DNA of 38,327 nt. Origin: Promethearchaeota archaeon (lineage in GTDB: Archaea > Asgardarchaeota > Lokiarchaeia > Sigyniarchaeales > SOKP01). Both the position numbers and the translations under genes were made by a program. The DNA is taken from positions 1 to 38,327 of the forward strand of contig JAFGGO010000171.1 of NCBI GenBank assembly GCA_016930515.1. The letters run 5' to 3'. The notes beneath the pieces are model-generated. The model was not told where the DNA came from and did no database searches. It saw only the letters and a program-made list of their open reading frames with translations. Numbering within the stretch: the stretch's first letter is position 1; each line of letters begins with the position of its first letter. Below are positions 4-35,321 of the stretch, piece by piece.

Positions 4-594
4 ATGACAAAAATCAACATGACATATAAATGTGATATATGCGGTCAAGAGTTTAAAAGACCAACTAGTGCGACATCTTCAAAACACATAAATGGTATAA
101 GACATCAAGCAGCTTTACAAAAAAAAGGAATTAAACCATCTATAGAGGTATCAAAAAAAATAGTATCAAAAGCCAGAACTATCAACAGTACTCTCGATTC
201 CGAACTTAAAGAAATGAAAAAAAGAATTCTCTTCCTTGAGAAAGCATTCAATGTGATTCAAAATCAGCAAAACAAGATACTAAAACATCTTAATATTACG
301 GATTCTCAGCTGAAAGGGGGCATAAGTATTGATAGGTCATCTATAATAGGAAAAAATGAAATTTTAAGCGCTATTAAAAGATGCGTCCGTAATAACACGG
401 ACGGGAGTAGATGGGTTGCCTTAGATGATATCATAAGCATCCTCAAACTTCACAGGGAGGAGGATAGAAGTGTTTTAAACAAAATTTTAATAAGACTATT
501 CAATCAGAACTTAATTGATCTTTCCGAAGGAGGAGATCCTAAATACCCTGTATATCACCAAAACAGAATTTTTGGAATGGTTGCATTACAGTGA
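4..594 (+). CDS. C2H2 (matrin/U1-like) zinc finger + coiled coil + C-terminal winged-helix-like protein
   Basis: N-terminal C-x2-C-x14-H-x5-H (CDIC...HINGIRH), heptad-like segment LDSELKEMKKRILFLEKAF, and wHTH-like C-terminus (WVALDDIISILKL...LNKILIRLFNQNLIDL). TAATG at 2-6 suggests coupling to an upstream gene outside the window. Confidence 0.65.
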   Translation: MTKINMTYKCDICGQEFKRPTSATSSKHINGIRHQAALQKKGIKPSIEVSKKIVSKARTINSTLDSELKEMKKRILFLEKAFNVIQNQQNKILKHLNITDSQLKGGISIDRSSIIGKNEILSAIKRCVRNNTDGSRWVALDDIISILKLHREEDRSVLNKILIRLFNQNLIDLSEGGDPKYPVYHQNRIFGMVALQ

Positions 595-619
595 TTTTTA
601 TAAAGGGTTGAAAATAGAG

Positions 620-3280
620 ATGGATAAAAGCAAGAAAAAAAAGTTAGATCAGAAAATAATTAACAGCATAACTCCCTTTTCAAGATTATCATATAATAAG
701 GCGAAGAAGGTAGATATCTTTGTAGGAAGAGACAAATCCTTGAGGTACCTTACTGAATCCTTGTTCAAGTCCGTTTTTAACGATCAAAGCTTTGGAATTA
801 CCATATCAGGACCAGGAGGGTGTGGTAAATCTACTTTATTTGGCTATTTTATGCAATTAATTAATTCCCAAAAAATTTTTCAAGAAAAATATTGTTATTT
901 AAATAAAGACGATAGTAAAATCATAAGTTGTTTTATAGACGCTCCAAAAGGAGAGCCTACAACTTTAAAATATTTCTGGACATCAATAATTGACGCTTTA
1001 GCCGAAGAAAACAGGGATTTTTTAGAAGAATACAGTACTGTATTTATAAGAAAATGTATCTCTATTTTATGGAATAATAAAGTCCACAGAGACGAGATTA
1101 TTAGTATATTTTTGGATTTAATTCCAAACATTGAAGTTTTATTATCTAATAGCAGATTTGTAGAGATAGTAAATATAGATAATTTATTCAATTTTCTTAT
1201 ATCTAAAAACGGAATTTTAGACGACATATATAAAATCATTAAATTTGGATGGCGTATTTTACAGAAAAACGAAGTAACTTTTGGACTCTTGGGAAAAAGC
1301 GGTGATTTTAATCAGAAAAGATCGTTCAAATATGATAAGCGATATATTGATCTATTATTTAATGTTTTAAGCAGCGATCCTGACAAAAGTGCATCAGCTC
1401 AAAATATATTAAAAGGTGTTGAAGGGGATTTACTTAAATCTGACAGCGATGTAATTTCTCTATTTAATTGGTTAACGCAAACATGGGAATGGATGGAAGA
1501 AAAACCAGTCAGTTTTCTCGTGGGTATAGATAATATTGGATATTTAACTCAAAATATAAAAGATAAAAGTTCTGCGTTTCCACCTTTTATTCAGACCATT
1601 TTACAGATGAGAAATAAGTTGAAAAAATGCTTGTTTGTCTTAATAGCTACAAACGATGATTGGAGACAATTTAACACTTATACTAGTCAACACGAGGATT
1701 ATCGAACCCAATTACAAGGATTCTTGATAAATAGACTTGATTTGACTCGCCTTGTTTTAAGTGAAGTGCAAGAAGCATTAACAATGATAATGAATAATTT
1801 TTGGAGTGGATTGGGCATATTAGATCCATCAAATTCTGTTTATCCCTTTTCCGAATTGTTTTTTTCATATTTATATGAATATCACGCTCACGAATATCGC
1901 GCCATTTTAAACCATTTAAATCAAATATGGGGATATTATAAGACGAAGCTTAAAGTCCTACCTTTAACAAACCCTTTTAAAATGATTAATTTTGTTAGAG
2001 TAAAGACTTACGATTTATTCAGGCAAACATCTCAAGAAGCAAAAAACAAACTTTCAGAATTATTCTTCAGTAACTTGATCGAATGGGAAAAAAAACAAAT
2101 TAAAAATCAGTTTAATACCATTCAAGCTCGTCACTTGGGTAAAAAACAATCGGATATTGTGGAAAAAAAAGTAACTGAAGCACTCAGAGTCCTTCAAGAA
2201 AATGAAAATCCAAAACAGATAGAATGGGTTGAGCAAACGCCTCCTATTAATGTTGAAACAGAGAAAGGTAAGAGAACTCGCTATCCAGATGTGTATGTAA
2301 AACTAGCTAGAAACTCAATTTCAGATAAAAAACATACATTTGAAATTCAAGTAAAGATGTACGATAAGAATGGACATGTAAAGCTTAAAGAAATCGATTC
2401 TAGTATCGAATTACTCGAGCGGGCTTATACAGACGCTTTATTATTTTTAATAATAGGAGCAGGTTTAGAGGAAGCTGCGATTGAAGAAATAAATCGCTTA
2501 AATTTAGAAGATCGCGTTCTCAATTTTAAGCCTCTTGATTCTGAACAAGAAGAAGCTCTTTCTTTTCTAGTATTTTATGAAGATATTACAGGAAAAAAAA
2601 TTTCGGTTGACATTGTTAAGGAAATTCTGGAAATATTGTTTAAAGAACCCTGGAATCGTATAATAAATAAAATTAGGAATATTGGATCTTATCGTGCAGC
2701 TATGATTGAAGAAAAAATAAAGGAAAAAGAAAAACATACAATTATAGGATATGCCAAAATTCAAGGGACCCACCCAGGTTCTGAAACTCAATCAATCTCA
2801 ATAAATCCCCCAAAAATAGAAGAAAATACAATTAAAACTGAAATTGATATTAATTCTAATACGGGTAATTTGTTAAAACCTAAAAAAGTTGAAATTAATA
2901 ATGGGGAGCAAGAACAGCAAGGAGATAAAAGCGATTTCGATCAAATCCTTAAGGATTTACAGTTATCGGATTCAAAAATCCTTTTGACTAATGTTCATCA
3001 CAGATACAAAGATAGTAAAGCAGATTTAGAATTCATAATTAATACGGCAATCAAAAGAACCGATCGTTACAAGGGGAAAGTTACCAAAGCGTATCTTAAA
3101 AAAAAAGTACCTGCCCATTTATCTGACGAAAATATCAATGAATTATTCCTTCGGCTTAAAAACGAATATTCTAAAAACCAAATACCTCAAGAAGAGTGTC
3201 TCTTTTTATACGAGGGAACCTCCTTAGTTCTTACGGATATTGGTAAAAAATACTCTTCAATAATAAATAAAATAAATTGA
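620..3280 (+). CDS. Large P-loop ATPase (AAA+/ORC-Cdc6/STAND-like) with internal PD-(D/E)XK-like nuclease domain and probable C-terminal wHTH; putative defence protein
   Basis: FVGR motif, Walker A GPGGCGKST (809-835), Walker B-like FLVGIDN, sensor-like FVLIATND, YPFS lid motif, and RYPDVYV...FEIQVK. ATG at 620 is preferred over the track start at 515, which overlaps the previous gene. Confidence 0.75.
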   Translation: MDKSKKKKLDQKIINSITPFSRLSYNKAKKVDIFVGRDKSLRYLTESLFKSVFNDQSFGITISGPGGCGKSTLFGYFMQLINSQKIFQEKYCYLNKDDSKIISCFIDAPKGEPTTLKYFWTSIIDALAEENRDFLEEYSTVFIRKCISILWNNKVHRDEIISIFLDLIPNIEVLLSNSRFVEIVNIDNLFNFLISKNGILDDIYKIIKFGWRILQKNEVTFGLLGKSGDFNQKRSFKYDKRYIDLLFNVLSSDPDKSASAQNILKGVEGDLLKSDSDVISLFNWLTQTWEWMEEKPVSFLVGIDNIGYLTQNIKDKSSAFPPFIQTILQMRNKLKKCLFVLIATNDDWRQFNTYTSQHEDYRTQLQGFLINRLDLTRLVLSEVQEALTMIMNNFWSGLGILDPSNSVYPFSELFFSYLYEYHAHEYRAILNHLNQIWGYYKTKLKVLPLTNPFKMINFVRVKTYDLFRQTSQEAKNKLSELFFSNLIEWEKKQIKNQFNTIQARHLGKKQSDIVEKKVTEALRVLQENENPKQIEWVEQTPPINVETEKGKRTRYPDVYVKLARNSISDKKHTFEIQVKMYDKNGHVKLKEIDSSIELLERAYTDALLFLIIGAGLEEAAIEEINRLNLEDRVLNFKPLDSEQEEALSFLVFYEDITGKKISVDIVKEILEILFKEPWNRIINKIRNIGSYRAAMIEEKIKEKEKHTIIGYAKIQGTHPGSETQSISINPPKIEENTIKTEIDINSNTGNLLKPKKVEINNGEQEQQGDKSDFDQILKDLQLSDSKILLTNVHHRYKDSKADLEFIINTAIKRTDRYKGKVTKAYLKKKVPAHLSDENINELFLRLKNEYSKNQIPQEECLFLYEGTSLVLTDIGKKYSSIINKIN

Positions 3281-3302
3281 TGTTTAAAAAAATCAAAAAA
3301 AA

Positions 3303-5237
3303 GTGAAAAAGATGAAGATAAAGCAAGTCGAAATTCGCAATTTCCGTTCAATCAAGGATGTTTCTTTTAATTTATTATCTTATATGGTATTCGTGGGAAA
3401 GAACAACTCTGGAAAGTCCAACTTAATGGTTGCCCTCAATGCCTTTTTCTCGTGTGATGTTGGATCGAATGATTTTCGTAAGCAAAAAGGACAACAATCG
3501 AAAAAGCTAAGCATCATTGTTCATTTTTACCAACTGAATAAAAGGGAACAAAAGATTTACACGGGAAAACTCAAGAACGAAGGAGAAAAAGACGAACAGT
3601 TAGTGTTAAGGTTGAGAGCTGATTTATCTAAAGACGGAAAAGTCAATACGATTTATGAATACCTCTCACAATCGCTCAAGCTAGATAATACCCAAGCGCA
3701 AGCTCGTTATGGTCCACTTTTTGAAGATACAACATATAAATCCGTTCCCAAGCTTCTTGAACACCCTCACACGCCTCAAGAATTTAAGAAACAGGTCGAG
3801 GCGTTCGTGGAAAAAAAAGGTCAAAAACGCCTGACGAAGCAGGAATATACCGATCTCAGAGACGATTTCGTAAAAGACCTCCTTAAAAAACATCCCTCAT
3901 TAGGCAAGGAATCGTTTGAAGCAATAAAAATCACCTCCAGAAATTGTTCCAAGATGCTTGGAAATTTCTTTTTCATTCCCGCCGTGCAAGACGTGGAAGA
4001 AGAAACGAGGTACACGGCAAAAGGAAAGAAAAGTCTTAACCATCTCATGAATTACGTTCTCGACCAAATGCAGGATTCAGAAAATAGGGCGCTAAAAGAG
4101 CGAGAGATTCGGAGCCTGCTTACTGAATTATACCACCTCGAGGAGGAAGGTTCAGAGATCAACAAGCTAAAAGGAATGCTTAACGAACAACTTGCTTTAT
4201 TCGACAATTCGGAGCTTACCTTCGACACGCGGTTGCCCAACCTATCGAAAATGATAAGAGATTCGCTCAGGATTTACATCGATGACGGCATCAAGACGGA
4301 AGTCCAATACAAGGGGCACGGCTTGCAGCGATACTTCATGGTGGTGTTATTTAAAGCGTGGTCCGAGAAATTAAAAGAACAAAAAAGGGAGAAAAAGGAA
4401 GCTTCTATCTCCACATACTTCTCCATTGAAGAGCCCGAGCTTTTCCTTCATCCCCAGTTCCAACGCATGATGCGGATATACCTCCAGAAAATCGCAGAAG
4501 ACGAGGAGCATCAGATAATCCTCAACACCCATTCCCCGCATTTTATCGAGTTTAACGACATTTTTCAGGTCGCCAAGGTGCTAAAGACAGACGATGAGCG
4601 TACCACGATCGTCCAACCTCTTGAGTTCGATGAGAAGGGCAATCAAGTCGAAAAGGAAATGGTCTGTACATAGGGCACTCGAGCTCAAAAACACAAGTAT
4701 AGCAATATCAATCAAGTTAACATGAATTATTTCTTGAATCCCGAGCGAAACGAGCTGTTTTTCGCAGACAAGGTCGTATTGGTAGAAGGGCAAACGGAAA
4801 AGATGCTCTTTCAAGCGTGGGCTAATCATTTCTACAGAGATGATATTGCTCTTCTTAGTCAGGTAACTTACATCGATTGCGTGGGCAAGTTTAATTTCCA
4901 ACAATTCATCAAGGTACTCGGAGAATTTCAAATTCCGTTTGTTGCCATATACGACACGGATTCTAACAACCCAGAGTTTGATCCGACCAAGAATATTCAC
5001 ATCAAGCGCGCAGTAAGCGAGCAAGGGGGCAAATATTTTGAACTCGATCCAGATTTTGAGGGAGAATTTAAAATCGAAGAGGAAGAACTTGGAAAGAGAG
5101 GACAAAAGAAGCACAAACCATACTATGCTTTCACTCAATTTTTTGAGGTTGATGGAACGCCAAAAGAAGAGCAACTTAAATTCATCGAAATGCATCCTAA
5201 ATTAAGATTAATTTTCAAGGAGATTTATCAAGTATAG
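3303..5237 (+). pseudogene. OLD-family ATP-dependent endonuclease (ABC ATPase 3303-4673 + TOPRIM 4722-5237) interrupted by a single in-frame TAG at 4671-4673; pseudogene, split gene or readthrough
   Basis: IRNFRSI, Walker A GKNNSGKS, signature KGHGLQR, Walker B IEEPELFLHP, H-loop THSPHF, then TOPRIM motifs LFFADKVVLVEGQTEK and YDTD. Both ORFs share a frame and the 16 codons between them are open. Confidence 0.85.
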
Positions 5238-5332: not shown

Positions 5333-6007
5333 TTATAGGTTATAAAAGTTACAAATATCAGTTAAAGGACAATTTTCGCATTTGGGTTTTTTAGGAGTAC
5401 ACAATTCTATTGATAGATCTAATAAACCATAATTAAAATTCACATAATCATTTTCGGGAACGACTTGTTCTGCAAATTCCCATAATTTATTATCGTTCGT
5501 GGCTTTTGATTTTATGGAACTAATATTAAAGAATCGTTCAAACAACCTGACGATATTATTATCCAATAATGGTCTTTTTTCTCCAAATGCAAAGCATAAG
5601 ATAGCATTTGCGGTATATTTACCTATCCCCATTAAAGATTTTAATTGTTTGTATGTCTTAGGTATCTCTCCATTGAAATCTTGCTGAATTTGTTCGGCTA
5701 ATCGTTTTAACATATCAACCCTCTTATGTAATCCCAGAGATCCCATCAATTTCCTGCCAGTTTTAATTTTCATATTTGAAAGGTGTTCTATTGAAGGATA
5801 TTTTTTAATAAATTCAATAAAAATCGGCTCAACCTGTGCGGCTTTTGTGCGTGTTAAGAAATATTCACTGATTAAAACCTTATATGGAGTCTTATCCTTG
5901 CGCCAAGAATATTTATCAATGCTTTGAATTGATATTTCTGATATAACATTTTTAAATTTTTCAAGGACAACTTTAGGTACTTCGAATAGATTATCCAGTT
6001 CTGTCAT
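5333..6007 (-). CDS. HhH-GPD DNA glycosylase with 4Fe-4S cluster, MutY/MIG family (probably T/G-mismatch glycosylase)
   Basis: PYKVLISEYFLTRT, HhH motif LMGIGKYTANAILCFAFG, catalytic LDNNIVR and FCL motif CTPKKPKCENCPLTDIC. No MutY C-terminal domain; adjacent to a C5-MTase remnant. Confidence 0.85.
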   Translation of the reverse strand: MTELDNLFEVPKVVLEKFKNVISEISIQSIDKYSWRKDKTPYKVLISEYFLTRTKAAQVEPIFIEFIKKYPSIEHLSNMKIKTGRKLMGSLGLHKRVDMLKRLAEQIQQDFNGEIPKTYKQLKSLMGIGKYTANAILCFAFGEKRPLLDNNIVRLFERFFNISSIKSKATNDNKLWEFAEQVVPENDYVNFNYGLLDLSIELCTPKKPKCENCPLTDICNFYNL

Positions 6008-6112: not shown

Positions 6113-6865
6113 ATGAGTACAAAAAATCTCACAGCAAATAGGGGAGAATGGAGTGAACTATATGTTTTCTTTAAATTACTTTCAGACGGAGAATTGTATG
6201 CAGCCGATGGTGATCTCAATAAAATCAACAATATTTATTATCCGATTGTTAAAATAATACGAGATGAAATTGATGGCAAGTGGGATTATTACAGAAATTC
6301 CAAAATAAAAATTATAAATGCTCAAACCAAAGAAATCGTCCAAGAAATCCCGATAAGTGATTTTGAACTTAATGCCAAAAATTTATTGAATACTCTTAAA
6401 GATAAAAAAAATAAAGGGAGTTTTTCTCTACCATCTATTGAAAATTTTATGAAAGCAATTAAATGTAATTCGATTAAACTTAGACCAACTGAAAAAAGAG
6501 ATATAACCATCGTTGTTCACGATCTCAGAACAGGTAAAAAGCCAACTTTAGGATTTAGCATTAAATCCCAAAGGAACTTAGTACGAGATATTATCAAATA
6601 TAAAGCATGGAAGAAAGGATTAGATCCTTTTAAATACAGAAATGATGAAGGGATAAGGAAGATGACCGAGCGCGAATGGGCGCGACTTCAGGGATTTCCC
6701 GAAGATTTCAAATTTCCCGTGTCAATGACGCAGGCATATCGACAATTAGCAAATTCAGTTCCAGTACCCGTAATAAAAGCAATAGCGTTAGAAATAAAAA
6801 AGTCTCTTGAAAATAAGATTGATTTGAAATCCAAGCTCGAAAAATATGCAGTAGTTGATAACTAA
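6113..6865 (+). pseudogene. In-frame chimera: N-terminal half of an HpaII-family restriction endonuclease (to ~6571) fused to the C-terminus of an HpaII-like C5 DNA methyltransferase
   Basis: NRGEWSELYVFFKLL...KRDI...LGFSIKSQ is typical of the HpaII REase family. RNLV...GIRKMTEREWARLQGFP...AYRQLANSVPVPVI corresponds to C5-MTase motifs IX-X. MTase motifs I-VIII are absent. Confidence 0.85.
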
Positions 6866-6930
6866 ACATATCAAACTTTTATTTTTCAAAAATAAACGGA
6901 GTTTTTTATCTTCTACTTTAAATAGGATAT

Positions 6931-7629
6931 ATGAAAGAGAGCGTAGGATTAGATTTTATAAAATATAATTTTAAAGCAGATAATATTAATGAAATTATAT
7001 GTCTTCAGAATAAAGCAGATATATTCAATGAGAATCCAAATATAATTTTTACATTTATAATTGAAGGACTAAAAGTTAATGAAGAACTGATTGATGAAAT
7101 TAATTTATTACCTGAAATAGAACAGCGACTTCAAAAAATAGAACAACTTGGGGGAATTATAAAATATTCTGACCTTAAGGATGAAAAATTTAAGTCCAAT
7201 TTGCTTATGATTGATACTAATTTACCGAATTTAATTGGAGATATTTTATTAGCCTATTTTAAGGGAATATCAGAAAATATAAATGAACTTTTAGAATATG
7301 TCAAAGAAAATAATCCACTAAATATATGTGAAAATTATTTACACGAATTTTATGATAATAAAACAAAGAAGTTTTTATCCTACATAATAATTTCAGAAGA
7401 ACAAAATAATATAGTAGGAGATTTCAATCTGAATCCAAATAGATATATAGTATTAAAAAATGATAAAATTGGAATACTTAATGCCTATAATTTAGAGAAA
7501 TTTGAGGATAATCTCTTAGATAATGCGAAATTAAGTTCAGACAATAATCTGAATACTTTTGGTTATATTTTTATGTTCAATTCTTTAATATTTATTAATC
7601 TAAAGTTAAACATAGATTTCAATTTATAA
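6931..7629 (+). CDS. Divergent protein resembling the C-terminal two-thirds of an HpaII-family restriction endonuclease
   Basis: FKSNLLMIDTNLP, ENNPLN, HEFYDNKTKKFL, FEDNLLDNAKL, FGYIF and LKLNIDF parallel the HpaII-family C-terminal motifs as I recall them. The N-terminal catalytic region is missing. Confidence 0.65.
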   Translation: MKESVGLDFIKYNFKADNINEIICLQNKADIFNENPNIIFTFIIEGLKVNEELIDEINLLPEIEQRLQKIEQLGGIIKYSDLKDEKFKSNLLMIDTNLPNLIGDILLAYFKGISENINELLEYVKENNPLNICENYLHEFYDNKTKKFLSYIIISEEQNNIVGDFNLNPNRYIVLKNDKIGILNAYNLEKFEDNLLDNAKLSSDNNLNTFGYIFMFNSLIFINLKLNIDFNL

Positions 7630-7906: not shown

Positions 7907-8160
7907 TTGGGTACTGTAATGCTAAAGAACGATACAAAAATCAAACTGACTAAAATTGCAGCTGACCTTCAAAAGCAAAGAGGTAAACGAGTAGATTTTG
8001 ACGAAGCCATATCTTATTTAGTAAATTTATATAATAATCAACAAACTAATTGGAATTTGTTTGAAGAATTCTGTGAACCATTGAAAGGTGCTACTAAGAA
8101 TTAATCGAAGAATTATATAAAGGACGTGAAGAAGACGAAAAAAAGGTCCGTCTCGATTGA
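7907..8160 (+). pseudogene. VapB-type antitoxin with apparent 1-nt frameshift near 8098
   Basis: Small ORF with TKIKL...FDEAISYL antitoxin-like pattern upstream of a PIN gene. It stops at 8104, but a shifted frame continues ELIEELYKGREEDEKKVRLD* to 8160, overlapping the PIN start. Confidence 0.6.
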
Positions 8161-8557
8161 TGCCAGCTGCTTGATTGCAGTCCAAGCAAGCGAATCTCTA
8201 AGCGAACTTTTTAAGGATAAGATAAGAAAGAATTGGAATGCATTTTGTTCTGAATTCGCCCTAATTGAAACATCTTATATCTTATGCCGAACATTTGGCA
8301 TCGAGATCGCAGAAAAAAAAATGATGGCGCTAAAAGAAAGTGGAATTATTCAAATCGAACCAATTTGTAAAGTAAGCAAGGAAGCGTCATTAATTAAATG
8401 TAATCGACCAATAGGCATTGGTGATTGCCTTACAATTGCGTTAGCTAAATCCATCAATGGAGATGCTATCTTTTGTAATAAAGAACGAGAGCTATTTACT
8501 ACATTAGATAAAAAACCTTTTGATGTTAAAATCATATTTCTTGAAGATATTATTTAG
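8126..8557 (+). CDS. vapC: PIN-domain (VapC-like) ribonuclease toxin
   Basis: SIDASCLIA, ALIETSYILCR, IGIGDCLTIALA and terminal ERE give the PIN acidic-residue pattern; 143 aa. Confidence 0.8.
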   Translation: MKKTKKRSVSIDASCLIAVQASESLSELFKDKIRKNWNAFCSEFALIETSYILCRTFGIEIAEKKMMALKESGIIQIEPICKVSKEASLIKCNRPIGIGDCLTIALAKSINGDAIFCNKERELFTTLDKKPFDVKIIFLEDII

Positions 8558-8569
8558 AGATATTCCTAG

Positions 8570-8881
8570 GTGAAAGTAACGGGAAAGGTCATATCAGTTA
8601 GAATTAATAAAAATTTGGAAAAAATAGTTGAGAGGTATTCAAAGGAAAGGAAGGAGGGCGCGGACCAATCCGAAATAATACGCGAGCTCATCGATAGCGG
8701 AAGCGTATATTTAGCCTTAAAAGGATACGCTCAAGGAAAATATTCAATTGGAAAAGCAACTTATTTAGCAAACCTCCCTTTGTCCGAGTTCATGGATTTA
8801 ACGATGGAACTCGGGATTAAATCTAAAATAGATAAGGAAGATTTGCTTGAAGGATACGAAAATTTCAAAAATCTTTTTTAA
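8570..8881 (+). CDS. UPF0175-family antitoxin-like protein (RHH + HTH)
   Basis: VISVRI...QSEIIRELI (RHH-like) followed by YAQGKYSIGKATYLANLPLSEFMDL..ELGI. Confidence 0.75.
   Translation: MKVTGKVISVRINKNLEKIVERYSKERKEGADQSEIIRELIDSGSVYLALKGYAQGKYSIGKATYLANLPLSEFMDLTMELGIKSKIDKEDLLEGYENFKNLF
8843..8881 (+). repeat. 39-bp imperfect direct repeat, copy 1 (3' end of UPF0175 gene)
   Basis: ttgcttgaaggatacgaaaatttcaaaaatcttttttaa; 35/39 identical to 14279-14317. Confidence 0.85.
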
Positions 8882-9276: not shown

Positions 9277-12200
9277 TTAAAACTCTATCATATTTGACAT
9301 TTGAAGGATTTCCTTGAGTTTTTTCTTGTTGATAAAATATATACTTTTTTTCTTGCTTGAAATGACGCCGTATTCTTCGAGCTTGCTAATGTACTTCTTG
9401 ATCGTGTTGTAATGAATCCCTAATTCTCTAGATAATTCCGTGAGTTGACATCCCTTTGAATTTAACTCCAAATATTCTATTATCATCTTGCATTTACCAC
9501 GCGAAATAATATGCACGATTTGGGCGCTATGAAAAGACCCTTCGTTATCAAAATATGCTTTTCGATTGCCAATTTTCTCAGGCCTCACAAATTTAAACTT
9601 ATCCAACACGCTCAAATGCCATCTGATCACCGCACCGCTCATTTTTATCTTCTTTAAGAGCTTGTTAAAATGAATGCCGGGATTTTCTTGCACGCACTCA
9701 AAGATTTTTCTCCGATTATCATTTTTTAAAATATCAGTTCTTGACAAAATAGATCCCTCTACTAAGACATTTTTCTCGATGAGTGATTTCAATATTCTTT
9801 TAATTCCTTCCGAGTTAATGTTGATAGAGGCTCTGGAAAATCTCACTTTAAGATATGGAACGATGCTAATAGGGTCGAATTTCTTATGTTTTTCCATATG
9901 TTCCTGGATTAGTTCCAGCGCAAGCCCTTCGTAGACTATGACATCTTCTACTTCTTCGCGTTTTCTTTTTCGCACAACGGGAACGCTCTCTGTCTCGCCA
10001 TAAATAGTGTTTACTACTTTTACTCTCTCTTTCGGTAAAAACGATAACATCTCCCGGATAAAGTCTTCCTTGACCTGTCCCTTAAATCCAATATTATCCG
10101 TCGTGGTAAGGAATTCGCTTGAAACGATCGTGAGTGGTTTTTGTTTCAACAACGCAATGACTTCTGCGGGGATGTTCTCGTCAAAGGCCCTGAGCAATTC
10201 TTCCTTGTTGCTAAGCTTGTTTAAGATTTCCTTAGAGGACTTCGTTTGATTTCTATATTTTTCGTATTTATCATCCTTTTTCTTCTTATTTTTCGGTTTT
10301 TTTCGGTTTTTTAATTGTCGCTGAGCTAATTTACTTGCGAGTTTTGTCGTTTTTTTTGAACGATAAATAGTATATCCCGAAACGAGAGACACGGCACTAA
10401 CGGCACCTACACTAGCAAGAACGATGGTCACTATAAGCGCAGAATCGTCTTCACCATTGGGTTCTCCAGAACTTGAATACGACTTTATTAATTCTAGATC
10501 GCAAGTTCTTTGATTTCCCGCCATGTCTAAAACGAAGAATCTCACGATTATCGTGCCGTTTCCCATTTGATCCCAAGCAGCCTGGTCGATATAACCGTTC
10601 CACGCATATTCGGCAGTGTAATGAGCGCTATTCGTTGCGTTGATTAACATGTATTGAATCGATTCGATTCCACTTGGATCTGAAACGAAAATAGTAATAT
10701 CGCTTGCACTAGGGGCAATAATTCCATAGAGTTTTTCGTGTTCGGAGGTTATCACGATAATTTCTGGAGCAAAAATATCCTTCCTTATCATTATATCGGT
10801 CGTGCCTATATTACCAGAAGTGTCGTTTGCGTAAAATCGCACGATTATCGTGCCGTTTCCCATTAGATCCCAAGCAAATTGGTCGATATAGCCGTTCCAT
10901 GTATAGTTGGAGGTATGATGTGCGCTATTCGTTGCGTTGATAAGGACATACCATTGACCATCTATACCATCTAGAGCTGAAAATGATACATCAAAATCGT
11001 CTAAACCTGGAGCATCCATTGAAAATATCTCATTTTCCCATGGTTTTTTAATGTCAATAAAAACGAGATTATATATGCTTTTTCTTACGTGAATATCAGC
11101 GAAGCCTACATTACCTATCGTGTCGTTTGCGTAAAACCGCAAGATTATCGTGCCGTTTCCCATTTGATCCCAAGCAACTTGGTCGATATAGCCGTTCCAA
11201 GTATAGTTGGAGGTATGATGACTGCCATTTGTTACGTTGATTAACATGTACCATTCAGCATCGATTCCGCTAATATCTTCACTACTTACAGTACAATTGC
11301 TCGGTCCAGGAGCATCTAAGCCAAAAATATCATTTTCTTTAGGATTAATAGTGAAAATATTTGGAGATATGATATCTTTTCTGATAACAACTTCAATGAT
11401 GTTAAAGTAATCGTTTACATTATTAACGAAGAACTTGATTATTACGGTTCCGTTTCCCATCTGATTCCAGACAGATTGATTGATCGATCCATCCCAAGTA
11501 TGGTTGTCCGTAAATTGAGCACTATTCGTTGCATTAATCAGCATGTATTCTACTGGATCGGAATTTGGATAACCAACATATAAATCGATATTGGGGGGGC
11601 TCTTGCCAAATAGTTCGTAATTTGTTGGACTAGATAGAACAAGTAAGGGTGGAGAGCATATGGGATAATTATCAGTAATATTTCCTGATATGTAGGGTGT
11701 AGACCCAATTCCATCACCTCGATCTACGCCTGTATAATCGTGCCAATAGTTTCCAATTTCTCCATAATCCCATTTATTATAAGACGCGTTGTCTTCGGCA
11801 TTTATTCCGTTCTCAATGAAAAAATTATGATATATGGTGTTATTATTGCTGTTGTCGAGAAGTACAAGTCCATTATTTCCGTTGTATTGGATAATGTTTT
11901 GCGATATGGTATTTTCTCTGCTATATCTATCAATAAGCATTCCGTATAACGTATTGTTGCTAATCTCATTCTCCAGGACAAGGTTCTCGTCACATTGATC
12001 GGAAAAGACAATTCCGTTGTCTTGGTGAGAGGACCTAACATTACTTGCGCTGTTTCTAAGAATTGTATTTCCAGAAGATATGAGGAATCCAATTCCATAT
12101 TGATCATTGTCGTTCACGGTGTTATCGCTAATAGTGTTGTAATCGCATCTGTAATAGAAGTAAATTCCTCTCTCATCATTATTGCTTACATTATTGCTTG

Positions 12201-13920
12201 CGATCGTGTTATTATTATTACAGGTATAGAAATACATTCCGATTATGCAATCACTTACCTTATTTCCTGAAATTGTGTTCTGATCGCAATAAAATGAAAT
12301 GTATATTCCGATATCATCGAAACTTGAATCTTTGCCACTTATATTATTTTCCGAAATGGTGTTGTTCACGCAATAATTATCAAGGAGTATTCCCTTTCTC
12401 GTATTATTCGTTATTTTACATGCCGAAATCGTGTTATTTTCGCAATAATTTGATAAAGATATCCCACCAAGATCATTATCGTATATTACATTGCCTGAAA
12501 TATTATTCTCGTGACAATAATCTATCAAACTAATTCCATTATTATTATTGCTTACATTATTGTTCATAATTTTATTATTATTGCAATGTTTGTTCAAGGA
12601 TATTCCCACAATACCATCACTTAAAACATTTTCAGAGATGGTGTTGTTATCGCTTTTACCATTCAAATGTATGCCATATCCAGAAGGATAAATCTCTTCT
12701 TTATTTCTTACCATATTTCTCGATATATTGTTATGAGAACTTCCAAACAAGTAAATACCGGTGTAAACATCTGTTAGGGTTAATCCCGTGATCTCGGAAT
12801 AAGAGCAATTAATTAAAAATATTTGGGAAGCATTTTCGTATTCTCTTGGTCTTAGGCCCATTCGATCTACATAATAGTAAATAGGTTTTCCGTTTACAGT
12901 ATTTGTAGTATTGATGTCGTGAGTTCTTAAATCGGAAAGAGAGCCTTCAACTTTTAAGCCTCCTGATCTAAAAAATCGATTATTGTACAATATAGCCCTA
13001 TAAGAATCCCACAAGAAAACTCCAACATGGTTGTTGCTTCCATTATTCCCTGAAATGGTGTTATCATTACTGTAACATGAAATTAATAAGCCATAACCAT
13101 TACCATCCATCGTATTATTAATGATATTGTTAGAATTACTATGATCGGCAATCCCCACTCCAAAATTTGAATTATTAAAAACTTTATTTTCCGATACATT
13201 GTTATTGTCACAATTTCCAAGCAAGCCTATCCCGTGATCTATATTTGAAATCCCACCATCTGCAATGTTTCCAAAAATGGTATTGTCGTCGCAATTATTT
13301 AGCAGTGTTATGCCACCATATTCATTAGCATTTGCCATGTTGTTTACAATAGTGTTGTTATCGCAATAATCCATTACAAATATTCCACTAAAATCATTGA
13401 TATTTGCCGTGTTGTTTGTGATTGTATTGTTATCCGAGTTGTTATACAATGCTATACCACATCCTTGATTGTTTTCACAAGTATTATTCATAATTCTCGC
13501 ATTTGAAACATTCACGAGTTCAATACCTGCGTAATAGTCGTAATCGTCGCCACGCCTACCTGAGTTAGTTAAAGAACAGTTCCGAATGATAAAATACGCT
13601 CTTGAATTTCTTATTTCTATGCAAGAACTATCATCACCACCATCAATAACGAGGTCCTCAATGATATAAGGGCTTGCAAGAGTACCATTACCGCTACACC
13701 ATGTTTGATTGGACGCCCAACTCCAGTTTATCAAGCTCCCTGGAAGATCGTCGATGACGAAGTCTTCCATTACGACGGAAGATTTTAGAAAACCTTCTTC
13801 TTTTACATCAATATCAGTATTAAATTTCTTAGAATCCTGTCCTTGCAAAACGATTGCGCAAAAAAACAATACAAAAAATAATGTAATGTATACTTTTATT
13901 TTATCATGTCGATCATGCAT
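9277..13920 (-). CDS. Single-pass membrane protein: signal peptide, NosD/parallel beta-helix repeats, four Ig-like repeats, TM helix, cytosolic tandem winged-helix (COG3398-like) domains
   Basis: N-terminal hydrophobic segment, many NNTISxN/GI repeats, GNYWHDY cap, ~99-aa repeats, TM ALIVTIVLASVGAVSAVSLVSGYTIY followed by a Lys-rich stretch, then NRRKIFECVQENPGIHF...WHLSVL and QLTELSRELGIHYNTIKKYISKLEEYG. Confidence 0.85.
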   Translation of the reverse strand: MHDRHDKIKVYITLFFVLFFCAIVLQGQDSKKFNTDIDVKEEGFLKSSVVMEDFVIDDLPGSLINWSWASNQTWCSGNGTLASPYIIEDLVIDGGDDSSCIEIRNSRAYFIIRNCSLTNSGRRGDDYDYYAGIELVNVSNARIMNNTCENNQGCGIALYNNSDNNTITNNTANINDFSGIFVMDYCDNNTIVNNMANANEYGGITLLNNCDDNTIFGNIADGGISNIDHGIGLLGNCDNNNVSENKVFNNSNFGVGIADHSNSNNIINNTMDGNGYGLLISCYSNDNTISGNNGSNNHVGVFLWDSYRAILYNNRFFRSGGLKVEGSLSDLRTHDINTTNTVNGKPIYYYVDRMGLRPREYENASQIFLINCSYSEITGLTLTDVYTGIYLFGSSHNNISRNMVRNKEEIYPSGYGIHLNGKSDNNTISENVLSDGIVGISLNKHCNNNKIMNNNVSNNNNGISLIDYCHENNISGNVIYDNDLGGISLSNYCENNTISACKITNNTRKGILLDNYCVNNTISENNISGKDSSFDDIGIYISFYCDQNTISGNKVSDCIIGMYFYTCNNNNTIASNNVSNNDERGIYFYYRCDYNTISDNTVNDNDQYGIGFLISSGNTILRNSASNVRSSHQDNGIVFSDQCDENLVLENEISNNTLYGMLIDRYSRENTISQNIIQYNGNNGLVLLDNSNNNTIYHNFFIENGINAEDNASYNKWDYGEIGNYWHDYTGVDRGDGIGSTPYISGNITDNYPICSPPLLVLSSPTNYELFGKSPPNIDLYVGYPNSDPVEYMLINATNSAQFTDNHTWDGSINQSVWNQMGNGTVIIKFFVNNVNDYFNIIEVVIRKDIISPNIFTINPKENDIFGLDAPGPSNCTVSSEDISGIDAEWYMLINVTNGSHHTSNYTWNGYIDQVAWDQMGNGTIILRFYANDTIGNVGFADIHVRKSIYNLVFIDIKKPWENEIFSMDAPGLDDFDVSFSALDGIDGQWYVLINATNSAHHTSNYTWNGYIDQFAWDLMGNGTIIVRFYANDTSGNIGTTDIMIRKDIFAPEIIVITSEHEKLYGIIAPSASDITIFVSDPSGIESIQYMLINATNSAHYTAEYAWNGYIDQAAWDQMGNGTIIVRFFVLDMAGNQRTCDLELIKSYSSSGEPNGEDDSALIVTIVLASVGAVSAVSLVSGYTIYRSKKTTKLASKLAQRQLKNRKKPKNKKKKDDKYEKYRNQTKSSKEILNKLSNKEELLRAFDENIPAEVIALLKQKPLTIVSSEFLTTTDNIGFKGQVKEDFIREMLSFLPKERVKVVNTIYGETESVPVVRKRKREEVEDVIVYEGLALELIQEHMEKHKKFDPISIVPYLKVRFSRASININSEGIKRILKSLIEKNVLVEGSILSRTDILKNDNRRKIFECVQENPGIHFNKLLKKIKMSGAVIRWHLSVLDKFKFVRPEKIGNRKAYFDNEGSFHSAQIVHIISRGKCKMIIEYLELNSKGCQLTELSRELGIHYNTIKKYISKLEEYGVISSKKKSIYFINKKKLKEILQMSNMIEF
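10480..11640 (-). repeat. Four tandem ~297-300 bp intragenic repeats encoding Ig-like modules (boundaries approximate)
   Basis: gattatcgtgccgtttcccat recurs near 10546, 10843 and 11143 with a diverged copy near 11441; protein motif Y(M/V)LINATNSA...WNGYIDQxAWDQMGNGTIIVRF. Confidence 0.85.
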
Positions 13921-26132: not shown

Positions 26133-29100
26133 TTACAATTCTAAATCTTTTCCACAAGCCCAACAAGATTCTCCTTTTTCTTTCAAAGCATTAGCGCACG
26201 ACTTGCAATAGAACGCCTTACAGTGAGGGCAAAGGTAAATATTCGTACCTTCAACGGGCCCTTTATGGACAACGCACAGGAACTCTTGCGCTTGAACTTG
26301 AAGCTCGGATTCGGTTTTTACGAGCTCCTCCACTTCTGCTTGCGTGCTAGGCTTATGATCAATAGGGGGAAGCTTTGATTTTAGAGAAGAAGATTTCGGA
26401 AAAACCTTGTTTAAAACAATACTTTTTTCAGTTTTTTGTTTCAATATAGGAGATATATCTAGGTTTGAAGTAGAATCGACTTTTTTTCTTTTTATTATCT
26501 TTATCGCACTTCCTAATATCGTTATCACGCCTAATACTAATAATGTTGAAAAAATCACGATAGCTATCAAGTTGGGCGGAACGATCGTAGGTGATACAAT
26601 CACGGTCATGTTTGCTGTTGCCATGTCTCCATTAGCGTCGATTACCGTAAGGGTAACAATGTAATTACCTCTCGTATTAAACGAATGAGAGGGAGTTGGG
26701 CCGTAAAAGACAGGTCCTTCGTCCCCAAAATCCCAACTATAGTTCAAGGGATCGTTTCCACCGATGACTTCGTAAGCAAATTCGATTGATTGCCCGATAG
26801 TGGCGCGAAGCATTGAATTGATGAATTGGACACGGGGTACGGAATCGAAGTGGATTTCAACGAAATCTGTTTTTATTGTTTCAGAACGGTCACCATCAAC
26901 ATCAACGATTACGAGGCTCACGGTAAAAGTGCCATTTACGTCGTAGCGATGAACGGGACTCTCCAAGTTAGAGATATTACTCTCGTCCCCAAAGTTCCAA
27001 TAAAATTCGGGAGAGCCGTTCCCAATGGACCCGTTAAATTCAAAGTATATCGATTGCCCTTGTATGACTTGGGTGGCGTTCGCAAAAAATTCGGCAACTG
27101 GTTGATAATCAAAAAGAACATTAACGCAATTTGGTATTGAAAAGTTATCGATATCACCTGTCGCATCGATCACGGATACATTCACCGTAAAGGTGCCGTT
27201 ATTCGAATACACGTGTGAGGGATTTTTAGAGCGAGAGACGGGCGTTCCATCGCCAAAATCCCACTCGTAGGTGAGGGCAAGGTTGCCTCCCGTGCCCGTG
27301 TAAGAAAATTGTACTGACTGTCCCGCGATTATTTCGGCGTGGCTAAATTCGAAATTCGCGATTGGTTTGGAGTCGTTCAAGGGATGCTCGTCTTGGTTTG
27401 TAATCGTTGCTCCATTGGTAATGTTATATGGCTCCATTCCCGTGCCGTTTTCGTAAAAACTTCCGACGTAATCGCTCCAATAATTGCCGTGAGTCCCGTT
27501 TTCCCACGAATTTCCAATACCACCACCACCTTTATCGCAGGAATTATTTACCTGATTATTGACAAGTGAGTTGAGCCATATCTTATTACAGTCGGTAAAA
27601 TATCCCAAATATATCCCATAGTCCTGGTTCTCGACGAGGGCATTTCCAATCATTTCGTTATAATATGCTCCACTAAAATCGGTAAAGTTTATCCCAGATT
27701 CTTCGTTATATTTGAGTATGTTTTCCGATATGATGTTATTTTCAGTGGAAAAAAATTTTATTCCGGATTCAGTATTATTGCATATTATATTTTCCGATAT
27801 GGTGTTATCTTGGCTAGCATCATATAATTCTATTCCAGATCGGGTATTATAACAAGCTATATTTCCCACTATGGAGTTATTATGGGAACTACTTAACGAT
27901 ATTCCCCGAAACGAGTTAAAACTCGCGTTGTTTTCCAAAATGGTATTGTAATTACTGTTATCGTACAATCCTATCCCATTTTCTACATTATAATAGACAG
28001 TGTTTTCCGTGATATAGTTATAATCGCTTTCGTGATCCACGCATATTCCGTGCCGAATATTATTGAACGCTAGATTTTTTGAAACAATATTTCGGTCGCT
28101 ATTATCCAGGTATATTCCACGATATATATTATCGTATATTATATTTTCAGAAACGAGATTTTCATAACAATCATCGATGCGAAGTCCATTATTTTCGTTG
28201 AAACTTACATTATTTTCCGAGATCGTGTTATTGTGGCATTCCGATTCGAAAAATAATCCTGAAATCTTGTTGTAAAACGCCGTGTTTCCTTTTATCGTAT
28301 TAAAAGTATCCAATCCGAATTGCATTCCGTAGTATGAATTATTAAATGCGAAATTATATGAAATATTGCACGAAAAACAATCTTGAATTGAGAATCCACT
28401 ACCTAATTCTTGGAAACTAGCTTTATTCCCCACGATAATGCAATTACTACTATTACTGACGAAAAATCCCTCCCAACTTTGTTCGGTTACGTTATTATTT
28501 AAGATGTTCGTATTAGGACTATTTTGAACATATATACCTCTATCACAATCTATTTCGCTTGATGCGTTAAACACGGTGTTTTCTGAAACAGTGTTTCCAA
28601 TACATTCGTATAACCGTATACCTCTAAATGAATTATCGTATACGCTATTGTTCGCAACAACATTGCTGTTACAATTCATATATAAAGATATTCCGCCTTG
28701 TCTATTCAAGCTTACATTGTTATCCAGAACGAGATTATTTTCGCAATCTTCGTACAAGAAAATCCCTAAACCAGCATTATTTGAACAGTTGTTTCCAAGT
28801 ATTTGTCCATTCGAAGAGTTAACTAATTTTATGCCCGCATTTAAATCAGGGAAGGTTCCCTCGTTAGAATTGGTACAGGTGCAATTACGAATAATGAAAT
28901 AAACCTGCGAATTGCTGATCGTGATGCACGAACTTATGTTCTCTCCATCAATGGCGATATTTTCGATGATGTAAGGATCTTCGAATGTCCCGTTACCGCT
29001 GCACCAAACTTCGCTTGCTGCTAACGATACCCAATTATCTGGGGTTAGCTCGTCTATTACAATGGAAGATACGAGCGTCCAAGAACCTAAACATTCAGGA

Positions 29101-29258: not shown

Positions 29259-29449
29259 ATTATTTCGACTTTATTGTCTTCCTTGTTTTATATTATAATT
29301 ATCGCATTTATTATAATTTTTCGAATAATGCACTTCTTATTTAAATTTTTTGAACGATCAGAATATGGTAGGAATATATGGTGAATGTTTCTAAAATACC
29401 TTTAGGAGAAGTAAGACAATAAAAATATTATTAATAATTACGGCTAATA

Positions 29450-35142: not shown

Positions 35143-35321
35143 GTAGAAGAGAATTGCGTTCACATTAAAATATGTGATCTTTAAGAATTATAAATTGAGT
35201 ACTTAAAAATTCAATTCGAACATTTCATATTATTAAGGATTTTATTTTTCTTCAAAGATGATATTTGTAAAGATCATGGTCTTAAATAACCTTAATCCTC
35301 TTAAAGATTAAAAAAAAAGAA

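Follow-up and report, generated by a model that had tools for sequence, protein, structure and literature searches.

The question raised by this locus is whether three open reading frames at the start of a Promethearchaeota archaeon contig (JAFGGO010000171.1, assembly GCA_016930515.1) form a single antiviral operon. The initial annotation read them so, as a zinc-finger winged-helix protein, an ATPase-nuclease and an OLD nuclease that together make up an undescribed Asgard antiviral system or the tail of one. The window analysed here is the entire contig of 38,327 nt. As annotated, the three frames are closely spaced and co-oriented (plus strand; 4–594, 515/620–3280 and 3303/3312–5237), with gaps of 25 nt between gene 1 and gene 2 and about 31 nt between gene 2 and the OLD gene. 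Our analysis yielded a two-gene answer: genes 1 and 2 (Table 1) probably constitute an ATP-gated nuclease module for defence against foreign DNA. A two-gene module without a PADLOC match fits the claim of a previously undescribed Asgard system, whereas three genes do not. A TAATG at the contig edge had also been taken as the sign of a further upstream gene; the window does begin with TTAATG, but this amounts to one codon only. Its first 21–127 nt have no second occurrence or contig overlap in the same genome, and a contig of a second assembly begins within gene 2.

Table 1. Features of the locus; positions are counted from the first letter of the window.
Feature	Positions	Strand	Basis or remark
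Gene 1, partner/adaptor, 196 aa	4..594	+	ORF; relatives lie directly upstream of the ATPase gene
Zinc-finger motif C11-x2-C14-x13-H28-x5-H34	34..105	+	Sequence; weak Pfam matches
Gene 1 C-terminal domain, approximately residues 132-196	397..591	+	Predicted contact with ATPase
Gene 2, 886 aa: AAA+ ATPase, Mrr-like PD-(D/E)xK nuclease, disordered linker, C-terminal winged helix (predicted)	620..3280	+	
Walker A G64-P-G-G-C-G-K70-S-T72	809..835	+	G67, G69, K70 invariant in 34 homologues
Walker B D304-N305	1529..1534	+	Asn at the place of the usual catalytic Glu in the window's clade
PD-(D/E)xK domain: E515, P556-D557, E575-x-Q577-V-K579, D605	2132..2539	+	Foldseek, VIA, Mrr_cat_2
Disordered linker, residues 708-770	2741..2929	+	pLDDT <50
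C-terminal winged helix, residues 783-886	2966..3277	+	VIA, HTH_45
OLD-family gene, ATPase part	3312..4673	+	AAA_15 E 3e-42; PADLOC AriA, Old, GajA models
In-frame TAG in OLD gene	4671..4673	+	Relatives: Trp 7/9, His 2/9
OLD gene, Toprim part, first ATG after the stop	4722..5237	+	PF20469 E 1.3e-17; PADLOC Old positions 376-493
EndoIII-like glycosylase	5333-6007	opposite to OLD	Next gene after OLD
HpaII/C5-methylase remnants	6113-7629		
PIN/UPF0175 pair	8126-8881		

Gene 2 most likely starts at ATG 620 rather than at TTG 515, since the N-termini of its orthologues align at the former position. Structure models were obtained with pLDDT values of 85.3 (gene 2) and 85.8. The hallmarks of an AAA+ ATPase are conserved, including the Walker A stretch G64–T72, D304 of Walker B, sensor 1 (T344) and sensor 2 of the lid (R427), and no conserved Arg finger was identified. 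Walker B reads D-N in 15 of 34 homologues and D-E or D-D in 17. The sole Pfam match of the ATPase is AAA_16, with weak matches to NACHT, NB-ARC and nSTAND, below family cut-offs, over the P-loop region; no TPR, WD40 or LRR repeat sensor was found in gene 2 by Pfam, in agreement with the annotated lack of a TPR/WD40 sensor. The closest structural matches are TnsC (Z 13.2), BrxC (Z 13.1, 333 residues aligned) and Cdc6 (Z 13.1) within a broader set of AAA+ folds at Z 10–13, including Avs4 and Avs5 at Z 10.7, all of which are to be read as ties among many AAA+ proteins with a high rmsd (7.6 Å for BrxC). Judging from the model, the ATPase belongs structurally with Orc1/Cdc6, TnsC and BrxC among the AAA+ proteins, and it holds a 180-residue helical insert.

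An internal PD...EIQVK motif had been reported after the ATPase and attributed to a PD-(D/E)xK nuclease. The motif (R554-Y-P-D...E575-I-Q-V-K579, 2279–2356) is present, and P556, D557, E575, Q577, K579 and D605 are fully or almost fully conserved among the 34 homologues. The modelled domain comprises a helix (508–528), strands 534–539, 558–562 and 573–580, a second helix (589–600) and a strand at 606–612; strand 558–562 comes after P556-D557, and strand 573–580 bears E575, Q577 and K579. This corresponds to the alpha-beta-beta-beta-alpha-beta core of the superfamily, in which strand 2 bears D and strand 3 (D/E/Q)xK. Both match lists are headed solely by restriction-endonuclease-fold proteins, by Foldseek AF1548 (E 3.5e-4) and AspBHI (E 4.7e-4), with MspJI and EcoT38I next, and by VIA 1xmx (Z 8.8), 1y88 (Z 8.4), McrC (Z 7.6) and LlaBIII (Z 7.5), the E-values being weak (~1e-4) and Z-scores of 7–9 middling by the tool's scale. 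Mrr_cat_2 is weakly matched in 12 of 34 family members. A restriction-endonuclease fold of the PD-(D/E)xK type is thereby confirmed at the level of the predicted structure. The ATPase gene is split into two ORFs at the linker at two related loci (L005 and L037). For the C-terminal winged helix, probably a DNA-binding domain, the VIA matches are the Rio2 N-terminal domain (Z 8.4), TubR (Z 8.3), F93 (Z 7.9) as well as PadR and MarR proteins, and HTH_45 is matched in 6 of 34 family members.

The product of gene 1 carries a C2H2-type zinc finger at its N-terminus, followed by a Lys-rich linker, a coiled coil and, at the C-terminus, a conserved domain containing a D-L-S-E-G-G motif and a nearly invariant G176 (in the alignment of partner relatives). 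Its annotation as a "ZnF-wHTH" protein was borne out for the zinc finger (Pfam gives zf-C2H2 at E 0.04 and SF3a60_Prp9_C at E 9.8e-5, the latter below cut-off and both weak), but not for the wHTH part, for which only weak matches of single members to winged-helix families are observed. Comparison of the gene 1 profile with solved structures returned coiled coils and weak MCM C-terminal winged-helix matches (E 0.0056 and 0.11), and profile searches against PADLOC and solved structures gave no similarity to BrxB. The N-terminal module appears to be swappable, with SAP/Rho_N/HeH replacing the zinc finger in other relatives. All ESM Atlas clusters matching gene 1 are from Promethearchaeota.

The association of these two genes is a conserved feature of the family, and we consider them a conserved two-gene module. 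A gene 1 relative is located directly upstream of the ATPase gene, on the same strand, at 27 of 33 assessable genome loci (only 9 of 15 partner detections at genome loci being independent of the loci used for building the profile) and at 17 of 17 assessable metagenome loci, all of them outside the partner profile. The six assessable loci where the profile detected no partner carry mostly the most divergent ATPases. The intergenic gap ranges from -14 to 94 nt (20 loci), or from 4 to 94 nt with a partner ORF of at least 119 aa. The predicted complex of the two products yielded ipSAE values of 0.68, 0.68 and 0.72 vs. 0.00 for the best control, at a mark attained by 116 of the 157 complexes of solved structure and by 2 of the 215 mismatched pairs, these values being a measure of model confidence and the custom alignments used here lying outside its calibration. 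At least 78% of contacts agree between runs (partner pLDDT at least 63). The predicted interface is formed by residues 63–66, 344–349, 372–380 and 420–424 of the ATPase and residues 132–137, 163–177 and 185–196 of gene 1; the prediction places the C-terminal domain of gene 1 as a cap over the face of the ATPase that bears the ATP pocket. No shared third gene emerged from the ORFs downstream at 10 loci, which are dissimilar except for the identical copies L067/L068; stray C-terminal-domain ORFs at two loci (L031 and L037) are 31% identical to each other. A third component is possible in the window's clade, since a UvrD/Zn-ribbon gene sits upstream of the partner in two close relatives (L023 and L060).

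The third gene of the window has a different history. Its assignment as an OLD nuclease was correct as to domain identity, but it is not a single open gene, an in-frame TAG splitting it into two pieces. The full-length relatives are continuous proteins of ~655 aa, and the stop would fit a change from TGG to TAG; another assembly of the run that is the likely source has the same sequence. Recoding of this stop codon was considered and rejected: the best PylD match reaches 20.9 bits vs. a cut-off of 150, ARAGORN found no tRNA-Pyl (among only 12 tRNAs, without intron search), and TAG terminates 205 of 1572 long ORFs, being an ordinary stop in this genome. That the stop instead yields a working two-protein form, with ATPase and Toprim separated as in the split AriA/AriB of PARIS, is an unlikely alternative, even though the first piece scores best against AriA in PADLOC (E 4.5e-45; GajA models match more weakly than AriA and Old), an ATG follows 16 codons past the stop and the other conserved residues are all intact. 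The second piece, however, matches OLD/GajA Toprim models and PF20469, with no AriB model among the matches listed (25 of 43 PADLOC families) and no DUF4435 match, and the stop falls on a Trp conserved in the continuous 655-aa relatives. Neither is the split itself conserved, since other short relatives stop elsewhere.

It is highly improbable that the adaptor, the ATPase-nuclease and the OLD protein belong to one defence operon, perhaps with another upstream gene. Apart from the shared strand and the short gaps, this reading could draw on locus L064, with an OLD gene 53% identical to that of the window beside the pair, and on L023 and L060, where UvrD, the usual partner of class 2 OLD proteins, is encoded upstream of the pair. 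Neighbourhood comparison, which the initial annotation itself had named as a test, decided against it: OLD directly follows the ATPase gene at none of the 28 loci where downstream sequence extends for at least 1 kb, and the only co-occurrence elsewhere (L064, 1 of 56 loci with OLD close to the pair) is upstream and divergent. In addition, genes 1 and 2 are intact while OLD is interrupted, and no counterpart orthologous to the L060 UvrD was found in the window's genome, where the best match has 27% identity and lies mid-contig. The suspicion that OLD is more GC-rich and separately acquired proved well founded, with a GC content of 0.41 vs. 0.33 (gene 1) and 0.31 (gene 2) and a GC3 of 0.47 vs. 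0.28 and 0.25, respectively, along with its absence downstream of the pair elsewhere. OLD is probably a separate class-1-like nuclease from another Asgard lineage, inserted beside the module; by its sequence, it appears to be an unrelated passenger recently broken by a nonsense codon. The available part of a published OLD classification lists as class partners UvrD (class 2), reverse transcriptase (class 3), DUF4435 (class 4) and a membrane protein (class 5) (PMC12796447), and the OLD gene of the window has none of these adjacent to it. The annotated restriction-modification, glycosylase and toxin-antitoxin neighbours are all found further along the window (Table 1); the HpaII system beside OLD is a decaying remnant and not a partner of the gene pair.

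Turning to the family as a whole, it is small, with 61 representatives in a set of 1.84 billion proteins, and the pair is so far seen in Asgard archaea only, from which all named members come. Within the phylum, the pair occurs in 38 of 400 genomes, in 8 of the 90 that are of high quality, and in 20 of 85 genera. The genes around it, classed by eye and at family loci only, include NERD-UvrD, UvrD-GIY-YIG, HerA pairs, DruA, a PLD nuclease, GmrSD, nSTAND3, type III CRISPR genes, PRTase-CE and a Tn7-like set, and they differ between loci. It is these gene neighbourhoods alone that point to a defence role of the pair. The PADLOC search suggested by the initial annotation (hmmscan, v2) matched the ATPase to 0 families at E <= 0.01, and full-text literature, supplements aside, provided no description of the ATPase-nuclease family. 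The Prometheus system was considered as a candidate and set aside, its architecture, in the part of the report at hand (PMC13700489), being different from that of the gene pair.

Two non-defence roles have to be weighed against this reading. It is quite unlikely that the pair serves replication or transposition of a mobile element, with an AAA+ protein resembling Orc1/Cdc6 or TnsC joined to a TnsA-like nuclease and aided by a DNA-binding selector. TnsC and Orc1/Cdc6 are among the best structural matches, Orc1/Cdc6 likewise has a C-terminal winged helix, TnsA turns up weakly among the nuclease matches (E 0.08–0.12), and the distribution is patchy; nevertheless, no recurrent transposase or integrase adjoins the pair, the single Tn7-like set (L033) is self-complete and on the opposite strand, and the neighbours vary by locus, unlike those of a fixed element. 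Nor were relatives found in viral contigs by two pattern scans (two to six short patterns each, and thus weak evidence), one with a single protein and one with an alignment; the single protein gave no relatives in genome contigs either. A function in cellular chromosome maintenance or repair is about equally improbable. SAP, zinc-finger and winged-helix modules, all represented in the family, are typical chromatin binders, and there is a precedent in Cran1, an archaeal OLD protein and "defence-like" nuclease that, according to the accessible portion of its description, was found to be a cell-cycle factor (PMC12796447). Such a role is at odds with the occurrence of the pair in only 8 of 90 high-quality genomes and 1 of 5 other genomes of the window's own genus, with its variable context and with the shortened or split copies at L045, L072, L005 and L037.

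A side-by-side comparison of the putative defence module with known systems revealed several partial likenesses. One is to BrxB-BrxC of type I BREX, where a small protein gene likewise lies just upstream of a large AAA+ ATPase gene; BrxC gives the longest alignment among the tied best structural matches, and the partner is predicted on the ATP-pocket face, the site of BrxB on BrxC. BrxB was reported, in the part of the source available, to bind BrxC at this face in competition with BrxC self-association (PMC13326643). BrxC also has wHTH and alpha+beta domains beyond its ATPase, a further likeness. On the other hand, gene 2 is ~340 residues shorter than BrxC and has a conserved nuclease site, and the BrxC/BrxB models of PADLOC show no sequence match to the gene pair, the likeness being structural only. 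PglZ, PglX and other BREX partners are missing from the 165 neighbour proteins of 30 related loci; PglZ, PglX, BrxA and BrxL are absent near all loci scanned (the upstream side of the window being unreadable), and Pfam detects no PglZ, PglX or UvrD in the window. The initial annotation is upheld in that PglZ, PglX and UvrD are missing from the window.

McrBC, like other NTP-dependent type IV restriction enzymes, similarly couples an AAA+ NTPase to a PD-(D/E)xK nuclease and unites its nucleases by assembly, a logic also proposed here; yet the GTP-specific McrB and McrC are separate proteins, in contrast to the single chain of gene 2, McrB is not among the matches listed while the gene 2 AAA+ domain matches the Orc/Cdc6, TnsC and BrxC group, and neither a PADLOC match of gene 2 to McrBC/type IV enzymes nor a DNA-modification reader domain was recognised. 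With the modification-dependent nucleases Mrr, MspJI and AspBHI and the Mrr-like domain of the type ISP enzyme LlaBIII, the gene 2 nuclease shares the fold and the D...(Q/E)xK motif, but those nucleases are joined to SRA-like readers or helicase-methylase modules, while that of gene 2 is flanked by an AAA+ domain and a winged helix. Avs/STAND proteins also combine a P-loop NTPase (in the AAA_16/STAND borderland) with a nuclease effector; their effector is N-terminal and their C-terminal sensor is made of repeats, whereas gene 2 has its nuclease after the NTPase, no repeats and a separate partner. Orc1/Cdc6 has the AAA+ fold (Z 12–13) and C-terminal winged helix in common with gene 2, which differs by the helical insert, the inserted nuclease, the patchy spread and a dedicated partner. 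As for the OLD gene, Gabija places a GajA-type OLD beside the UvrD GajB, whereas the OLD gene of the window is without UvrD and followed by the glycosylase gene; PARIS has a separate AriA ATPase and an AriB Toprim with DUF4435, rather than a stop at a conserved Trp; and class 1 OLD genes are single, encode an ABC ATPase with Toprim and stand alone in variable neighbourhoods, the domains and the single-protein form being seen in the 655-aa relatives, while the copy of the window is interrupted.

The pairing of the genes, the folds, the conserved motifs and a predicted interface are what the analysis shows. From these we infer that the two genes are transcribed as an operon, that the partner binds the ATPase, that a trigger leads to cutting of DNA and that the pair serves in defence. 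The zinc finger of gene 1 (SAP/Rho_N in other members) would anchor the adaptor on nucleic acid, its coiled coil would probably join two copies, and its C-terminal domain would rest on the ATPase face with the P-loop, sensor 1 and lid. The ATP-pocket face is where AAA+ proteins normally stack on one another, and the adaptor would thus cover this stacking face in the manner of BrxB on BrxC. Some trigger would then shift or remove the cap, ATP-bound ATPases would gather on DNA, and the nuclease domains brought together by this assembly would cut it. The ATPase may be a slow switch and not a motor, since Walker B is D-N, not D-E, in the window's clade. More tentatively, the pair could be viewed as a pared-down, Asgard-only version of a BrxB-BrxC-like switch, in which the ATPase is joined directly to a nuclease and nucleic acid is recognised by the adaptor's SAP or C2H2-type zinc finger, modules that are more familiar from eukaryotes.

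Overall, the map of this locus is corrected, its OLD gene and HpaII system being decaying remnants rather than partners of the pair. Archaeal immunity beyond CRISPR and restriction-modification is poorly charted, about one third of archaeal genomes having no known immunity beyond these two in the portion of a recent report available to us (PMC12988326), and the pair provides a compact and well-modelled candidate missed by PADLOC v2. It also offers a testable idea, namely that competition between a cap protein and self-assembly of the ATPase gates the nuclease. If the reading as a BrxB-BrxC-like switch is true, the pair would be a new defence system and a simple two-protein model of how a small protein capping the ATP face of an AAA+ ATPase converts self/non-self sensing into DNA cutting, a step that is still unclear for BREX.

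The first two plus-strand genes of the window, gene 1 (the partner or adaptor) and gene 2 (the ATPase-nuclease), make up a conserved two-gene unit, located here on a contig of 38,327 bp that is entire in the window and is one of the 190 contigs of a 4.0-Mb genome (35% GC). Across the phylum, the gene-2 ATPase has relatives in 38 of 400 genomes (high-quality genomes: 8 of 90; genera: 20 of 85). The named homologues belong to Promethearchaeota, Sigynarchaeota, Hodarchaeota and Helarchaeota, which identifies the host as an Asgard archaeon. Using ATPase and partner profiles built in this analysis, we compared 38 genome loci taken from 35 of the 37 remaining genomes with a relative, omitting the short partial matches of two (G155 and G282). 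The profile search recovered the ATPase in 37 of these 38 loci, and in 27 of the 33 assessable ones its immediate upstream neighbour, on the same strand, is a gene-1 relative; four loci are truncated by a contig edge, and the partner was undetected by profile in six (L026, L045, L047, L050, L051 and L052). Because 18 of the genome loci contributed to the partner profile, only 9/15 counts as independent. A further 18 metagenome loci from close relatives had no part in this profile, and all 17 assessable cases among them have the partner upstream (L067 and L068 being near-duplicates). The family is small, with 61 representatives at E <= 0.001 in an exhaustive search of 1.84 billion proteins, and two pattern scans of viral contigs found no relative.

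The initial annotation had placed both genes with the following OLD-family gene in a single candidate defence operon. This grouping did not hold, as OLD never follows the ATPase in the 28 loci (of 55) having at least 1 kb 3' of it; near the pair it occurs in only one of 56 loci (L064), upstream and divergent, with 53% identity to the window's copy. No other conserved gene was found 3' of the ATPase among related loci. Thus, the pairing counts, the absence of OLD and the lack of a conserved downstream gene together define a unit of two genes. The start of gene 2 is likely the one listed in the table, because the N-termini of orthologues align there.

Features of the window and of the gene-2 protein (nucleotide positions unless residues are indicated)
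Feature	Position	Strand	Remarks
Gene 1	4-594	+	196 aa
Gene 2	ORF from 515; probable start ATG 620	+	886 aa
Gene 2, AAA+ ATPase	residues 1 to ~470		helical insert ~116-293
Gene 2, Walker B	1529-1534
Gene 2, PD...EIQVK motif	2279-2356		R554...K579
Gene 2, nuclease	residues 505-640		separate model of residues 500-886, pLDDT 85.8
Gene 2, disordered linker	residues 708-770
Gene 2, winged helix	residues 783-886		Z 7-8.4 to Rio2-N, TubR, PadR and MarR proteins (VIA)
OLD-family gene	probable start ATG 3312	+	interrupted by TAG 4671-4673
OLD, AAA_15 ATPase ORF	3312-4673	+	AAA_15 match, ends at TAG
OLD, Toprim ORF	4722-5237	+	PF20469
HpaII R-M system	6113-7629		scrambled
65-aa ORF	7907-8104		just upstream of PIN/UPF0175
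PIN-domain gene, then UPF0175 gene	8126-8881		resembles a toxin-antitoxin pair
Three very large NosD/beta-helix proteins	9277-13920 and 26133-32425		two with PKD domains, one with C-terminal wHTH
Heliorhodopsin gene	34309-35163		E 6.6e-87
Recurrent contig end	38251-38327		final nucleotides, at least 77

The OLD gene is a broken passenger beside the pair. Previously read as one gene, it is split by a single in-frame TAG, while its nearest relatives (Asgard genomes, ~655 aa, 45-60% identity) are uninterrupted. As the aligned relatives carry Trp (7/9) or His (2/9) at this position, the stop is most simply explained by a change from TGG to TAG. TAG serves as an ordinary stop in the window's genome, where 205 of the 1572 ORFs with 300 aa or more end in it; neither a PylD match above the family cut-off nor a tRNA-Pyl was found in this genome. 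Other short OLD relatives terminate at varying places, so the split is not a conserved one. The same sequence is seen at depth 8.5 in a second, not independent, assembly of the probable source run. The suspected compositional difference is real: OLD has a GC of 0.41 (94th percentile of genome windows) and a GC3 of 0.47 vs. 0.33/0.31 (6th percentile) and 0.28/0.25 for genes 1/2.

In the full structure model of gene 2 (pLDDT 85.3), the ATPase has tied top structural matches, TnsC (Z 13.2; 275 residues, rmsd 5.1), BrxC (Z 13.1; 333 residues, rmsd 7.6), Cdc6 (Z 13.1) and Orc1/Cdc6 (Z 12.2), with RdrA, Avs4 and plant NLRs lower; Foldseek E-values are weak (~1e-4), and Pfam AAA_16 is matched by 33 of 34 members. 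Conserved positions among the 34 aligned homologues include Walker A, D304, T344 and R427. At Walker B, the window's clade has D-N (15/34) and a more distant one D-E or D-D (17/34); judged from this alignment, D-N is in effect a naturally occurring "trap-like" replacement of the catalytic Glu. The PD...EIQVK motif lies exactly where the initial annotation had put it, and the restriction-endonuclease fold on which that reading was staked is borne out by a modelled alpha-beta-beta-beta-alpha-beta core, with PD-(D/E)xK nucleases leading both structure searches: Foldseek (AF1548, E 3.5e-4; AspBHI, 4.7e-4; MspJI, EcoT38I and R2 endonuclease domains) and VIA (VC1899, Z 8.8; AF1548, 8.4; Can2; McrC, 7.6; LlaBIII nuclease, 7.5), where the Z values rank as middling on the scale of the tool, yet all top matches are of this class. 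Mrr_cat_2 matches 12 of 34 members. The C-terminal winged helix is sometimes an ORF of its own, split off inside the disordered linker (L005:113-550, L037:7236-7847); in L031, a stray copy (760-1125) sits 6 kb from the module.

A coiled coil is common to the gene-1 family, as is a ~70-residue C-terminal domain bearing a D/E-h-x-E-G motif; G176 is nearly invariant among the aligned partners of loci L023-L040. The N-terminal module, by contrast, is exchanged between lineages. Of 19 aligned members, eight begin with a C2H2- or C2HC-type zinc finger and nine with a helix-extension-helix module, labelled by Pfam, always weakly, as Rho_N (four), SAP (three) or HeH (one). Of the proposed "ZnF-wHTH" architecture, the zinc finger stands and the wHTH is tentative, its matches being weak and single (MCM3 C-terminus, E 0.0056; PCI, MCM5_C and GMT-wHTH, E 0.004-0.015).

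Modelling of ATPase residues 1-707 with the full-length partner, both given as alignments, yielded ipSAE values of 0.68, 0.68 and 0.72 vs. 0.00 for the best of three controls; 116/157 solved complexes and 2/215 mismatched pairs attained the score mark in the tool's calibration, which is only rough for alignments supplied in this way. At least 78% of contacts agree between runs, and the partner's pLDDT does not fall below 63. Partner residues 132-137, 163-177 and 185-196 are predicted to contact ATPase residues 63-66 (P-loop start), 344-349 (sensor 1), 372-380, 420-424 (lid, beside R427) and 487-489, i.e., the face bearing the nucleotide pocket, on which the next protomer docks in AAA+ proteins. 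In BREX, BrxB is encoded immediately before BrxC. It is reported to bind BrxC at the corresponding face, competing with BrxC self-association (PMC13326643). The predictor may have drawn on that BrxB-BrxC complex (PDB 9zll) as "memory", although no sequence similarity is detectable.

The neighbours of the pair vary between loci and are rich in nucleic-acid conflict genes, a suggestive trend, as judged from the related loci by themselves. They include NERD-UvrD helicases (L027, L030, L034), DruA, a PLD nuclease, NYN, GmrSD with nSTAND3, PRTase-CE, type III CRISPR genes (L036, L069) and a Tn7-like TnsA/TniB/TniQ set (L033); no PglZ or PglX was seen around related loci. In two close relatives, the partner is immediately preceded, on its own strand, by a UvrD helicase with topoisomerase-type Zn-ribbons (L023:2-1897, plus GIY-YIG; L060:278-3319); these two helicases share 59% identity, and a search of the window's genome gave no orthologue. 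A HerA (DUF87) gene adjoins the module in three loci (L035:10419-13373, ending only 8 nt 5' of the partner; L062:2537-5457; L029:1656-4464), preceded by a gene of 305-383 aa without a Pfam match in the scan, which covered L035 and L062. In the window's HpaII system, one ORF covers the endonuclease profile up to position 145 and continues into a C5 cytosine methylase, of which it has the C-terminal half; the next ORF holds the remainder of the endonuclease (profile positions 148-359). Taken with the broken OLD gene, this scrambling is suggestive of a defence island in decay. The contig's end recurs at the ends of three other contigs of this genome (C7, C57, C167), probably as a repeat element breaking the assembly.

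Beyond the pairing, folds, conservation and predicted interface, we infer a mechanism, partly by analogy with BrxB-BrxC and with nucleases that need pairing for double-strand cutting. The adaptor would tether to nucleic acid and act as a cap over the ATPase's ATP face; once a trigger had released this face, ATP-bound ATPases would assemble, allowing Mrr-like domains to pair and cut DNA. For the window's clade, a slow switch is suggested by the D-N form of Walker B. With PADLOC v2, the ATPase had no match and the partner a weak one (LmuB), and no description of the module was found in full-text literature searches or in Asgard and archaeal defensome papers, whose supplementary tables could carry it as a "hypothetical protein" entry. 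By their defining features, the module is none of BREX, Gabija, PARIS or Avs, and is probably not McrBC; its mode of action would be closest to that of an NTP-gated restriction nuclease carrying a cap similar to BrxB.
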